Source: Eledone cirrhosa (taxonomy: Eukaryota). From it: a stretch of 64,000 nucleotides of DNA. Of this stretch, positions 30,301-36,300 are shown one piece after another; within the stretch, counting starts at the first letter, position 1; each line of letters opens with the position of its first letter. Position numbers and translations under genes: made by a program. Under the pieces are notes generated by a model, which saw only the letters and a list, made by a program, of their open reading frames with translations, did not search any database and had not been told where the DNA came from. The DNA is taken from NCBI GenBank assembly GCA_964016885.1, contig OZ024743.1:21204001-21268000 (forward strand), given 5' to 3'.

Positions 30301-33300
30301 CAAATGGGCTGAGTAGAACAACATGCTATTTAATCCTGGAAAATTTCAAGCCCTACATTATCAACTTGCAAATACAAGGACAGAACAACAAAGCTGCACT
30401 GGACAAGGATGTAGTGCAATATATTAAATTTTGTTAAGGTATTACTAATGTAGTCATACTATAGCAGAATAAAACATATTCATTATGGAAATAGTAAATT
30501 GTAGTGCGTTTACTTCTTGGTGAAAAGATAAAAATAATAGATAACTCTAAAATTAGAAGATGTAACAAGTGTATAACAAAAAATATAATTTTCAAAGCTG
30601 TTCATATATAAGACTGTTTCTTCTGGATTACCTATCGGGACGTTATACCATCTAAAATATCAAACGCTTTAGGAAAAATACAATTTCAAAAGAAATCAGG
30701 TATTTCATACAATCATAGTTGTCAAAATAACAGTGGAAATTTCACAAGTAATGGTCATTTATATAAAGGGTACTTAAAGGTGAACTGACATGTCAGTCAC
30801 TAAATGTTCAGGTATATTGGTAGCAACAGCTCTACTTCCTCTGCCAGCAGCAGCAGCTTCAGAACCAGCATGCAATAGTTGAAGTTCATACAACAGATCT
30901 AAGAACATCTGACTGATAAAATGACAAGTCAGTCAATCATATTGGTGGCCTCCCCACAGCCCCGGCGGACAGAATGGAGAAGGCGTTTACCTGGAGGACG
31001 GCAAGTGAGACGTGCTGGAAAAGCCATTCCAACTCGCAGGGCTCACACCTGCGGCTGGTCAGCTCAGCACCTATGGTGGTGAGTAGGGAGGTAGCCCTAG
31101 GGCCGAGGATACCAGAAGTCTCCACTGCCAAGTGTTTGGCCTCCTCAGCGCGACGTGCAGCAGAACCTGGGTTAGTCGCAGACTGCACCAGGTTGTGGCT
31201 GGAGAAAGTGTATATAAATATAGCAAGAAAATAGGCAGTCATAGAATTATTGCCTGGATATAGTAAGTACGAAATAAACAAGTTTTTAATAATTGATCTA
31301 AAAATTATAAACGATAAATTTTGGAAATCTAACATATCATCTAAAAATCATGAGTACAGTATTTTTCGTCTGGATCATTACACATTTTCAAAGTATTTAA
31401 TAAATGAAACTCTATAGCTGTTTAAAGTCTAAAGAAAAAGCAACAAAAAAAACAACAACAACAACAACAAAAAAGCAACGTAATTTCAGTTGATTGAAGT
31501 TTTTTCAAATCATCATATTACATATGTAAAACACGACCGCATTACATAGAAATGTTGGATTATCGTGATATTTTATAGACATGATATTATTTACAGTAAC
31601 AATAATAATAATTGTTTCTGCTTTTGGCACAAGACCAGCAATTACCCAGTGCATTACTGGTACTTTATTTTATCGACCCCGTAAGGATGAAAGGCAAAGT
31701 TAACCTCGACGGGATTTGAACTCAGACCGTAAAGAGACGTAACTATGCTACAAAGCATGGCGTCCAACTCTCTACCGATACTGCCAATTTACCGCCCTAA
31801 CAATAATTGTTTCTACTATTGGCACAAGGCCAGCAATTACCCAGTACATTACTGGTACTTTATTTTATCGACCCCGTAAGGATGAAAGGCAATGTTAACC
31901 TCGGCGGGCTAACAATAATAATAATAATCATTTCTAGTATATGCACAAGGCCAGTAATTTGCGGGGGGGGGGGAGTCGATTAAATCGACCTCAGTAGATT
32001 ACTGGTGATTTATTTTATCGACCCCGTAAGAATGAATGGCAAAGTTAACCTCGGTGGTATTTGAAATCAGACCATAAAGGGCCGTAACTCTATGCTGAAA
32101 AGCATAGCATACAACCCTCTACCGATACTGCCAAATAATGATTTCTTATATAGGCACAAGGCCAGCAATTTGGGGGAGGAGAAAGTCGATTAAATTAACC
32201 CCAGTGTGCGACTGGTACTTTATTTTATCGACCCCGTAAGGCAAAGTTAACCTCGGCGGTATTTGAACTCAGAATGGAAAGGGCCGTAACTCTATGCGTC
32301 AAAGCATGGCGTCCGACCCTCTACCGATACTGCCAATCCACTAATAATGACAACTATAATAACGACAATAAAAAAATAAAAAAAATGAAAGAAAGAATAG
32401 GGAAATATAGAGAAAAAAAAGAGAAAAAGAAAGAAGAAAAAGAACGAGAGGAGAGGGGATGGCAAGAGTTCTGGTGTCGCAGAAGAGGGGGGGGGGGGTG
32501 AATGGGGAGGGCGGTTGGGTTTTGCGCTTATGGCAAGAGGGCAGAAGTGCTAGAACAAAAAATTATTTAAATTACATACAAATGTCTATTTTGCAAGAAA
32601 TAAAGAAACATATCGGTAAAAATTACTAACTCATCAAAAGCAACTCTTCCTGCTAATTCAGCACTTTTCCATGCATTTGCAAAGCCACCAGAGTTAATGG
32701 ATCCTTGGATAAGAATTGAAAGTAACCCAATCATCATCATTATTACTTGGAATGCATCAGTCCATAGCACAGCCTTCATTCCACCCTGTTCAAATATAAA
32801 TAGAATTAAATAAAAGACAAAACTATAAAACATCATAAGTATTTTTTATATTACTTAGTTTATTTCGAAAGGAAATTACATTTCAAGAATAACCTGTATG
32901 TATAAAAGTATTTCTCTCCCAACACATTAAATTCTTCTTCTCCCGACCGCATACCAACTTATCAAGATTTTCTTTTTTCTTTCCTCCCTCTCTCTAGCAT
33001 TCATACACACATACACGCTGTTTCTGATATATATATATATATACAGTTATATATATATGCAGCGATTCTTTGCTTATATATATATATACAGTTATATATA
33101 TATATATACAGTTATATATATATGCAGCGATTCTTTGCTTAAACTTTAATCTGTTATTTTAATATATATATATATATATATATATATATATATATATATA
33201 TATTAAAATAACAGATTAAAGTTTAAGCAAAGAATCGCTGCTTTCACACTTAACGGGATCTATCTTCTGAAACTAAAAACATCAATCTGTGAACACAGAA

Positions 33301-36300
33301 ATATTTCGAAAAACGTTGCAACCGAAGGAAAATAGAAAGACGATACTTTGGTTTGTGAAGACATTCCCTGGCAATGAACGGAAAAAAGCGAGGATAATAC
33401 GTCGATGAGAACAATTACACGCAAAGACAAAACCACGATTATGGTATAAATGAAGTCGTAGACTAATATTCTATTTAGGAAACCGAATGATTCTCGGCTT
33501 CAAAGTTAAGAATAATCTAAATAAATTAGTAGAACGAAAATGACAGAGGTCATTGAAATCAACAATAATTAAATATATACATACACGCATCCACGCATGT
33601 GTATCCATATAATTATATAAACATATATAAATATTCACCCATAAATACGTAAATAACGCACACACACACATACCTACAGGTAAATACACATATGTTCACT
33701 AAAAGTACGTCAACCAAAACACAAAGTACACATATACGCACCTTACATACGTGCAAACAAGCATACACACACAAACACAAAATACACATATACACATAAC
33801 CATATACACATGTACCAGTATATATAATATAATATATACACCTATAACAAATACAAGCAAATATACGTACGAGAAAGATTACGTACCTTCACAAAACATA
33901 CAGGTAAGGTATACTTACCTATACAAATAAGTAATGGTATAAACATAAAACATACTTAGCTACCACATCAAGACGTAAATTATCCGCGTATTGTTCGAAC
34001 TATCCGTTAGGGTATAATGTGGGGCTGTAATACAGGAAAGTTTTATGCAATTTATATTTACAAGCCGAAATTGCCTCAGATTTTTTGTTTAAGATGTGGT
34101 CATTGGCGTAGAGTATTTCCTTGGCTTCACCGGTTCAAAGATCGCATGGTCTTTTATTTCCGTTATACGATTTAGCCCTAGCTAGGATCTCCCAGTGTAA
34201 CCTATATATGGTGTGGTTGTCTTTTAGACTCCAGATATAAGCTGAAAGTCATATTCCTTCATATCCTTCTTAAAGGGTTAAGAAAAGAATGGGTGTGCAT
34301 GTAAAGACGCTGCTTGAATCTATTGGCGGTTAATCCTATGTAGGCCCTACGGGACGTGGGCCTTTCGACCTACATTTGTACACAATGTTACTGGAGAGGC
34401 ATTTCTCGGATAGAGGGCAGGCAACCCGATTCCCACAATTACAGTTAGTACTAGCTACAGGGTTGCACGTGTTCTTACGGCTAGGTAATTTAGCTAAATT
34501 TAAAGCAGTGATTTTATGTGCAAAGTTAAGAGTCGTAGAGCAAGATATTTTAATGGTATTTCTATTAAAAATTTGATTATGTTTATGTGCTGAAGGGAAA
34601 TGCTTCTTAATAAGGGAGAGAAAGATCTTAGCTAATGGTGTGGCCACCTCCATATTATATGGTGGGTTATACCATATAATGCGTCGGGATCTATTTTTCC
34701 TTCGTCTATGCTCATACTTAGTATATGCTACCTTATCGACAAATCCACTCCGAGCAAGAGCTTCATTGTAATATGTGGAATGGTCGGTAAAAATATGCTC
34801 GTTTGTAGATAGACGGAAAAGCCTCAAAGAAACGTTTCTTATCAGGTTCTTGGTTATGCTGGCAGGATGGTTAGAATGCTTACTTATATAATTAAGCGTT
34901 TCATTCGGCTTTCTATACGGGTAGTGCAAGCCATTCGACAAATTGAGGGTAACGTCGAGGTAATTAACGACCGCCTGTATTGAGAGGTTGGAGCCTTTAA
35001 AGAGGGCTGTGTTCTTTTCTGAACCTGTCGCAAGCGCGTGGACCACACGTTGTCATGGTCAAAAGACCGTCATCATGGTACAAACCACCGCCCACATTGG
35101 GGAATTCTTCTTTGGTAGAGAAAAAGAAGGAAAAGGCTGATATGATTAGTAACCTCCGCCAAATCGCTGGCGCCCATACCACGTCGAATGGGGTACTATT
35201 AGATTTTTTAATCCAAATAGAGTCGTCGAAATTAATCACCGACTTACGGGCATTGAGGATGACATCAACTTCGAAATTCTTAACCACCGTGAGCGTTTTG
35301 CTGAAATTGATAGCTCTAAGAAGAAGTGGTAAAGTGATGAGGATTAGTAGTTATTGGCGTCGAATTGGATAAAACAGCAATATTCCTTGTTGCATATGCC
35401 ATTGAACCAATCAATCACCACGAAAGAATTATTCCACAGTGCAAGAGGGGCCAAACTTCTAATTTCAGGTATAATTCTATCTAAAATCCTTTTACTAAGT
35501 CTACCTAAATCGGATTTCGTAGGGTTAATAAGGCGAATAGAGGGGTTGTTGGCGAAATTGGGTTTGTGATCCTTCAGGGTAAAGTGGGGAGAAATAGGGT
35601 CCAGAGGTGATTTTAAACCCAGCATCGTTGATGTCATTAACGACACTCCGATTAGTTTTCCGGTAATCCTTAGTTACAGCATTATGTAGCAGTTAATGGT
35701 AAGTACTGCGCTCCATTTGATATAGATTTCCAGTTTTGTCGGAATGGACGTGCACGGCATTAGAATCCTTAATAGAACGAATTCTATTCTTCAGGTTCTG
35801 CTGGAAGGAATTGCTCCTATTCCGAAATTTGATACTCCGTATGAATTCCAAGACATCGTTTTCGAAGGGTAGCAATGCTGGGTTACTTGGAGGGTTATTA
35901 TAAGTTTTAAACCAAAATATATCCTGTTTATTGTCCGCTATTCCCTGATTATCGAAATAAAGGGCACGCCAACGCTAACAGTCCGTTTTCTGTATCAGGA
36001 GTTTTAGGTATGTCTTCCTGCTTGGTACGGGTATGTTCTTTGTAGAAATATTCAGATGTTGTTTCTGCATTGTTTCCGTTCATTGCCAGGGAACGTCTTC
36101 ACGAACCAAAGTATCGTCTTCCTGTTTTCCTTAGGTTGCAACGTTGTTCGAAATATTTACTTCTGCGTTCACAGATTGATTTTTTTTAGTTTCAGAAGAT
36201 CCCGCTAAGGGTGAAAGCAGCAATTCTTTGCTTAAACTTTAATCTGTTATTTTTCATAAATATTTGCTCTCGGGTTCTTATATATTTGATATATATTTTT

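Follow-up and report, generated by a model that had tools for sequence, protein, structure and literature searches.

Why should a retrotransposon carry the same terminal sequence on both sides, in inverted orientation and apparently with a tail on one side only? The question is raised by a locus in a stretch of 64,000 nt from Eledone cirrhosa (GCA_964016885.1, contig OZ024743.1, positions 21,204,001-21,268,000 of the forward strand; referred to as the window, on which all coordinates are based). Here, a coding region for a reverse transcriptase (RT) and a GIY-YIG endonuclease of the Penelope-like element (PLE) type lies between two inverted repeats with hammerhead-like motifs. A first-pass annotation had taken the structure for a Naiad-like element with inverted terminal repeats and for the candidate parent of several small palindromes in the window. 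Our analysis makes it likely that the locus represents a single old insertion, spanning 33205-36349, of a PLE of the Hydra clade into a (TA)n tract within an intron of an octopod SLC5 gene.

Anatomy of the insertion and decay of its coding region

Anatomy, domain order, motifs, decay and intronic position are directly apparent at the locus. The layout consists of (TA)n, a short end, a body of 2866 nt, a joint, an inverted copy of 280 nt with a long tail, and again (TA)n (33205-36349), with the following parts:

33162-33203, no strand: (TA)21 target tract, left
33205-33387, minus strand: left repeat, the element's own 3' end; hammerhead-like, core 33269 (CAGAAGA), predicted cleavage 33225; its short end adjoins (TA)n
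33388-34044, minus strand: 3' untranslated region (UTR), GT/TA-rich and of low complexity; stop codon placed only roughly, near 34000-34045
34045-36070, minus strand: decayed, single open reading frame (ORF) comprising N-terminal region, RT, thumb, CxCX5C linker and C-terminal GIY-YIG (Hydra-type); 4 stops, 7 frameshifts, start ATG 36070
36070-36253, plus strand: right repeat, a second copy of the 3' end, truncated on its 5' side and joined head-to-head where the start codon lies; core 36193, predicted cleavage 36233
36254-36349, plus strand: putative long tail extension, on the inverted arm only, reaching the (TA)n target; similar to the copy at 36389-36738
36350-36388, no strand: (TA)19 target tract, right

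The inverted repeats of about 180 bp described earlier are real: 33205-33387 matches 36070-36253 at 88.8% over 188 columns (blastn E 1e-65), and repeat-versus-repeat alignment yields 179 aligned bases with 12 substitutions, along with 3 gaps. CpG decay explains 4 of the 12 substitutions (three on the left, one on the right), a pattern typical of neutral decay following insertion. Instead of the terminal inverted repeats that they had been called, the repeats are the element's own 3' end on the left and a 5'-truncated, inverted second copy of it on the right. Because the left repeat has the orientation of the ORF and a core placed, at 64 nt from the end, as in Hydra 3' hammerheads, we regard it as the normal 3' end. 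With a divergence that also fits the decay of the ORF, it is probably not an independent insertion, an origin that had been considered before. As had been noted, the ATG at 36070 lies at the inner edge of the right repeat, 0-5 nt to its interior side; an out-of-frame ATG at 36083 falls within the repeat.

The proposed minus-strand ORF for RT and GIY-YIG was confirmed as a coding region but not as an open frame: it is real but dead. A first search returned 84 homologues, 22 of which, near full length and picked by motif, were used for a profile. Frameshift-aware alignment to this profile revealed 4 in-frame stops and 7 frameshifts, the longest open stretch being 238 aa; ATG 36070 aligns with profile position 1, and identity to the majority sequence of the 22 homologues is 43% (288/664 columns). 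A profile of 36 homologues was covered colinearly at model positions 1-698 of 707, from 36070 to 34045 on the minus strand (best piece, iE 1e-82), and detected no second ORF of this type in the window. The named homologues are from Hydra vulgaris, Nematostella and Anneissia, and RT precedes the Cys linker in 71/71 homologues that carry both motifs, out of the 84. Reading through the lesions places RWR at residue 33, DKT at 111, YHDD at 333, CxCX5C at 546 and YIG at 580. The CxxC and CxH positions align as well but are damaged, with a stop codon for the second Cys of CxxC and Tyr for the His of CxH, consistent with decay. Selenocysteine read-through of the TGA at CxxC was set aside, TAA and TAG stops and the 7 frameshifts being present too; no search for a selenocysteine insertion sequence was run. 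The divergence of the repeats, ~3.4% per copy, predicts 1.5-2 stops (95% range 0-5), where 2-4 are seen, as two of the four adjoin indels and are hence uncertain. This agreement makes one age for arms and ORF plausible.

Origin of the inverted arm and its tail

The left outer end adjoins (TA)21, as described before, while the right end had been thought to lie merely close to such a tract. Homology with the copy at 36389-36738 continues past 36254 to ~36334, so that the right arm probably ends at (TA)19, at 36350; both outer ends reach (TA)n only with this tail counted in. The relevant sequence lies in partial copies next to the element. Those reported around (TA)n at 33124-33241 and at 36674-36738 were recovered, together with a shorter one at 33059-33076, and the copy at 36674-36738 extends further once an insert of ~187 nt is set aside:

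33059-33076: shorter copy of the short end, whose end coincides with the predicted ribozyme cleavage position or lies within 1 nt of it
33124-33160, plus strand: 37-nt tail-to-tail mirror of the short end, 37/37 identical to 33205-33241
36389-36738, minus strand: tail-to-tail copy of the same family (hammerhead and long tail), more diverged and split by the ~187-nt insert
36462-36648, minus strand: the insert, a fragment of a different hammerhead family, akin to the 62176 and 57674 palindromes; core of canonical type at 36560, exact 14-bp flanking duplication at 36448 and 36649

The copy at 36389-36738 mirrors 36188-36334 with 18 differences in 145 columns, and the tail part of this similarity has a score of 107, where 300 shuffles reached 41 at most. 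Two copies thus carry ~85-96 nt past the short end. The element's tail showed no similarity to the tails of other families in the window; a weak AT-rich match of 27 nt (z 5.9) was seen to the left arm of the 57000 palindrome, which is not of the hammerhead type. By eye, the long tails seemed to start with a conserved hairpin; this idea was dropped, with folding z values of -0.9 to +0.4 in 6 of 7 tails. On the opposite side of the element, 33015-33241 contains a perfect 118-nt palindrome around (TA)21 and slipped tandem copies, which either arose long after the element or are due to an assembly effect; the perfect 37-nt mirror, likewise, reflects a recent duplication, a conversion or an assembly effect.

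The head-to-head plan with outward hammerheads does recur in the window, as the first-pass annotation had stated. Four of 13 palindromes listed carry outward core motifs on both strands (50709, 55187, 57674, 62176), two are the tail-to-tail mirrors beside the element, and 7 lack such cores. The four units are:

50668-50801, 55187-55383, 57674-58133 and 62070-62534: head-to-head hammerhead palindromes, canonical-core and non-coding, each with one short and one long-tailed end

They form two family groups, 50709 with 55187 and 57674 with 62176, and a stricter descriptor passes 5 of their 8 cores. A short end is paired with a long one in 5/5 head-to-head hammerhead units of the window, the element included, the distances from core to end being 60/129 nt in 55187, 108/204 in 57674, 103/209 in 62176 and 64/156 in the element. 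In one palindrome family the long tail is common to two separate loci (score 58, shuffle maximum 23), which suggests that such tails are element sequence. The supposed role of the element as their parent was not borne out: its inverted arm and tail have no similarity above shuffles to the 55187, 50709, 57674 and 62176 units (alignment z <= 1.2), so that it is not the source of these palindromes, and the copy is dead.

Further structures of this kind were observed. Palindromes at 57000-57123 and 57152-57507 adjoin TA-rich tracts and have no canonical core, and a palindrome of 521 bp at 61448-61968 lies between microsatellites, with 8 differences in 242 per arm and no hammerhead core; three short motifs of the latter gave no match in the supplement of PMC8557442. 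Six short motifs of the element and the palindromes were likewise not found in that supplement, where FASTA line breaks can hide matches. At 60525-60558 (minus strand), a lone, well-formed canonical type I hammerhead has stems of 8/4/4 bp and no inverted partner was seen.

How inverted structures and tails of PLEs form has been stated as an open question (PMC8557442). The architecture as such is already known, since cases of an inverted copy plus a one-sided tail have been published among PLEs. Flanks of inverted pseudo-long terminal repeats (pLTRs), with an optional tail on one and head-to-head joints as the usual form, were described together with a proposal of self-priming (PMC3846280), inverted pLTRs and 3' extensions are handled as routine in curation (PMC8969392), and in Schistosoma minimal hammerheads occur in pairs on opposite strands, separated by 100-700 bp (PMC4209133). 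With a purified Poseidon PLE, both strands are cleaved and extended, and RT initiates at two neighbouring sites, between which the tail lies (PMC11167929). In line with that study, we consider a double-strand cut followed by two cDNAs the most likely route. The element's GIY-YIG endonuclease would cut the (TA)n tract on both strands, and each 3'-OH would prime reverse transcription close to the RNA's 3' end. The first cDNA would begin at the proximal, short start and run for 2866 nt to just beyond the start codon, and the second would begin ~90 nt further 3', at a long start that yields the tail, and cover 280 nt. Head-to-head joining would make both outer ends 3' ends, with hammerheads facing outward and a tail on one end only; the 5' UTR would be lost at the joint, and neutral decay would follow. 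The small palindromes would be short-armed products of the same process in other families. We thus infer a single insertion event with two RNA-templated primings, and a long tail that is element sequence. The scheme leaves unexplained the joint at the start codon, the perfect 37-nt mirror on an old element, and the replacement of U4 by A in the hammerhead core (U4A, see below).

Among the alternatives, the one that survives best, if still unlikely, is that the inversion in the same element arose by self-priming or fold-back, for instance on an antisense template, and not from two target-primed cDNAs. Self-priming has been proposed for head-to-head palindromic joints (PMC3846280), and several of the small palindromes have nearly symmetric hairpin centres. 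At the 36070 joint, however, no palindrome is visible, and the arms are asymmetric both ways: the ORF is on one only and the tail on the other only, so neither arm appears to be a fold-back of the other, and a simple fold-back of one cDNA cannot yield both. It is this property that makes the locus informative. If the strict pairing of short and long ends held genome-wide, it would favour coupled two-ended priming over self-priming.

Distinctly unlikely, in our view, is an inverted repeat fixed in the family as true terminal inverted repeats, with the antisense 3' end acting as promoter and 5' UTR, which would explain the ATG immediately behind it, and such a master spawning palindromic derivatives. 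A joint 0-5 nt from the authentic start codon would be a coincidence under random truncation and speaks for this possibility, as do the entry of Hydra-1_Obim as 'no pLTR' (PMC8557442) and the bidirectional promoters in pLTRs that were raised in PMC3846280. Yet the would-be leader includes the out-of-frame ATG 36083, three complete novel Hydra consensus sequences have, by eye, ordinary non-inverted leaders before the ATG, and inverted 5'-truncated copies are known as an insertion by-product (both PMC8557442). Arm lengths also differ among the palindrome families, as truncation would give.

Slightly less probable again is a pile-up of independent insertions of the same family in a (TA)n hotspot, in which the two repeats would be separate events. 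Extra tail-to-tail copies lie on both sides, and the one at 36389-36738 contains a fragment of another family and is more diverged, with 8 differences to the right arm and 7 to the left in 65 nt, against 3/66 between the arms. However, the 36070 joint shows neither (TA)n nor a duplication, and the same is true of the stretch from the ORF to the left repeat's inner edge; repeat divergence matches ORF decay, and the same plan occurs at four other loci. For the outer satellite copies a pile-up may apply.

Beyond the double-strand cut with two cDNAs at this locus, it might be speculated that octopod Hydra-clade elements integrate by coupled two-ended priming, with a short-start and a long-start cDNA and one tail per insertion as a rule. 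The cDNA stop at the start codon would then mark the natural 5' end of the RNA or a pause site. The family would have kept transposing with U4A, the motif being a protein-binding or priming signal or a protein-assisted ribozyme, and the short palindromes would constitute a large genomic record of the PLE inversion step. Taken as a whole, this proposal is tentative and rather on the doubtful side.

Clade affiliation and hammerhead-like motifs

That the element is Penelope-like, with RT, GIY-YIG and (TA)n targeting, agrees with the first-pass annotation; the label Naiad-like does not hold. Members of the Hydra clade are described as carrying the endonuclease at the C-terminus, with the motifs RWK and DKT, a divergent RT4, CxCX5C as linker, the motifs CxxC and CxH, a length below 3 kb, (TA)n targets, preferred by 26/27 listed families, and hammerheads (PMC8557442). 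Identification of RT and endonuclease here is a by-eye match to rows of Fig. S7 of that paper. The colinear profile match places RT before a C-terminal GIY-YIG in a single ORF. In the read-through, RWR represents RW[K/R], and by eye an RWR-like form also occurs in Hydra-1_Crog of the same supplement, and G.K[FY] is without match; DKT is present and DKG and DKA are absent; the CxCX5C linker is present and CX2-5CxxC absent. The divergent RT4(B) reads FDVxMG, not MGS[PR], no insertion relative to the Hydra-type profile (IFD) exists between RT3 and RT4, and CCHH was judged absent by eye against Fig. S7. The body of 2866 nt is below 3 kb and flanked by (TA)21 and (TA)19. None of the marks of Penelope/Poseidon, Neptune or Nematis (DKG, MGSP-type RT4; the CX2-5CxxC linker in Neptune) was matched. 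Thus, on its motifs, the element fits a new, dead family of the Hydra clade with a known layout, adding one decayed octopod family to a little-sampled clade and correcting the Naiad label. Naiads share the (TA)n bias and inverted structures and exist in octopus (PMC8557442), but the chance that this is one of them is practically nil: they have an N-terminal endonuclease, DKA, IFD, bodies of 3.4-4.4 kb and no canonical hammerhead (PMC8557442), whereas the element has a C-terminal endonuclease, which alone refutes the label, DKT, neither a CX2-5CxxC finger nor GxKF/Y in the read-through, and a body of 2.9 kb.

Of the listed Hydra features, the canonical 3' hammerhead was not found. Position, orientation and stems fit, with outward type I geometry at 33269(-) and 36193(+), stem I of 5 bp with a further 9-bp helix distally, stem II of 2-3 bp, 3 bp at 36193, stem III of 5 bp and a CUU site, so that the outward folds reported earlier stand in their geometry but not in a canonical core. 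An active type I ribozyme has three stems and the core C3 U4 G5 A6 N7 G8 A9 ... G12 A13 A14. The core here reads CAGAAGA, with U4 replaced by A, in 3/3 copies that include it, indicating inheritance from the source element. A custom hammerhead descriptor run on the window and 20 shuffles gave 2 matches for the U4 variant, exactly both repeats, versus 0-1 per shuffle (one in 3/20), and 9 for the canonical core versus 0-1 per shuffle; the third copy of the element's motif (core 36733) failed it. The hammerhead conformer lies at -13.0 kcal/mol, 2.5 above the -15.5 of the minimum-energy fold; the pairing probability of proximal stem I is only 0.03-0.04. Rfam, searched with the whole window and with 36150-36270, returned no hammerhead family and only chance microRNA matches to (TA)n hairpins, a null that says little as the canonical-core hammerheads of the window were missed too.

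Changes at U4 are reported to impair hammerhead cleavage in older mutagenesis work. Core variants are rare and usually of lower activity, the natural variants listed in the text of PMC3088659 including no U4A, and the literature searched contained no relevant report of U4A activity. The Hydra rows of File S2 have a canonical core in 26/26, but were found by a canonical descriptor (PMC8557442). Ribozyme activity of this hammerhead-derived motif is therefore doubtful, to judge from its sequence. For the Poseidon PLE, hammerhead cleavage was found to be dispensable for insertion in vitro, and protein-assisted (PMC11167929); the U4A core in all copies bears on whether PLE hammerheads must cleave.

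Several observations weigh against a single Hydra-clade insertion with an element-encoded tail. The sole second copy of the long tail is the adjacent mirror, which may be a local duplication carrying flanking DNA. At diagnostic sites the mirror differs from the right arm at least as much as from the left, which argues against a recent duplication; an old one may have occurred. The tail of ~96 nt exceeds the published 30-40 bp (PMC8557442), and the short end of one palindrome (62534) is not followed by (TA)n. Within (TA)n no target-site duplication is readable, and microhomology at the joint cannot be judged. The family norm rests on n=1, the one ORF-bearing copy in the window. A tree built from 44 long homologues, 5 named matches and the element (50 rows; Hydra-type only, no outgroup) leaves the element on a long unresolved branch. 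Finally, Pfam and PDB provided no convincing RT or GIY-YIG match: with 7 ORF pieces and 3 homologues, Pfam gave a sub-threshold GIY-YIG match only (E 0.14), RVT_1 matched 1 of 36 homologues (E 0.008), and a PDB sequence search with the homologue profile had 0 matches; the protein atlas had no entry for an ORF piece or homologue. This near-silence of Pfam and PDB fits the reported divergence of the clade but adds no support.

Genomic context and related systems

A protein of Octopus sinensis yielded 11 exon matches (E < 0.001) on the minus strand, from 51963 to 6157, at 65-90% identity. The exon beside the element matches the sodium:solute symporter family (SLC5), and its only two database matches were proteins of Octopus sinensis (77%) and Argonauta hians (71%), indicating that the host is most likely an octopod. 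The gene at 6157-51963 (minus strand) resembles, by sequence, an SLC5 sodium-coupled monocarboxylate transporter. Its exons next to the element are:

32692-32785, minus strand: partial downstream exon of the host gene (SLC5 sodium:solute symporter), from exon matches
43836-43910, minus strand: upstream host exon, from exon matches

Residing in the intron bounded by 43836 and 32785, the element has the same orientation as the host gene, and its inverted arms could pair as double-stranded RNA in the pre-mRNA.

Other repeats occur throughout the window. Two inverted copies of a long-ORF LINE-like element, presumably RTE-type, at 17601-20245 and 27158-29801 are 98.7% identical over 2645 nt; a 901-aa open frame of a LINE-like element (26372-29074) begins with an endonuclease-like region, and a related copy (74%) lies upstream at 13408-15801. 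A 58-bp tandem array of ~20 copies with 97% matches occupies 4649-5804. An abundant dispersed repeat of ~190 nt, SINE-like and in part tandem, is found across 9207-60936 (e.g. 31601-32341, 40519-41424), and we assume that it resembles octopus SINEs. Adjoining perfect or near-perfect short duplications, direct and inverted, at 38176-38230/41169-41223, 38226-38592/39979-40345 and 40343-40697/40817-41179 reflect either recent rearrangement or an assembly effect.

When the literature was searched for later work on PLEs of the Hydra clade in octopus, PMC8557442 was the only paper returned. The closest published family found, Hydra-1_Obim of Octopus bimaculoides, is nevertheless distinct. The Hydra clade, including this family, shares with the element the C-terminal GIY-YIG, RW[K/R], DKT, divergent RT4, CxCX5C and the CxxC/CxH positions, as well as a length <3 kb, the (TA)n target and a sense 3' hammerhead, and in the RT6-thumb block 44/84 residues are identical to Hydra-1_Obim (counted by eye). 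The 3' end and hammerhead of Hydra-1_Obim differ from those of the element, which is thus a family apart; the core A at position 4, the dead copy, the inverted 5' copy and the longer 3' UTR also set it off from the clade and from this family. The Naiad clade is similar in (TA)n bias, inverted structures and presence in octopus, and differs in endonuclease position, DKA, IFD, size (3.4-4.4 kb) and the lack of a canonical hammerhead.

Penelope-13_HM, of the Hydra clade, and Adineta vaga Pen2, Pen5 and Pen6 (PMC3846280) are also among the closest systems. The A. vaga type example has a direct pLTR between inverted copy and ORF, which the element does not, and the tail is ~31 nt in the Penelope-13_HM/A. 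vaga comparison versus ~96 nt here (PMC3846280). PAc, a Poseidon element of Anolis carolinensis, is similar in its AT-rich cleavage, the extension of both strands and two RT start sites that bound the tail; it belongs to another clade, its hammerhead overlaps the ORF start and its copies are in tandem, whereas the element's hammerhead lies in the far 3' UTR (PMC11167929). The non-LTR retrozymes, finally, consist of type I hammerhead units without coding capacity, for which an origin as non-autonomous derivatives of PLE ends has been argued, and they form head-to-tail tandem arrays, in contrast to the head-to-head pairs of the window (bioRxiv 10.64898/2026.07.22.740005).

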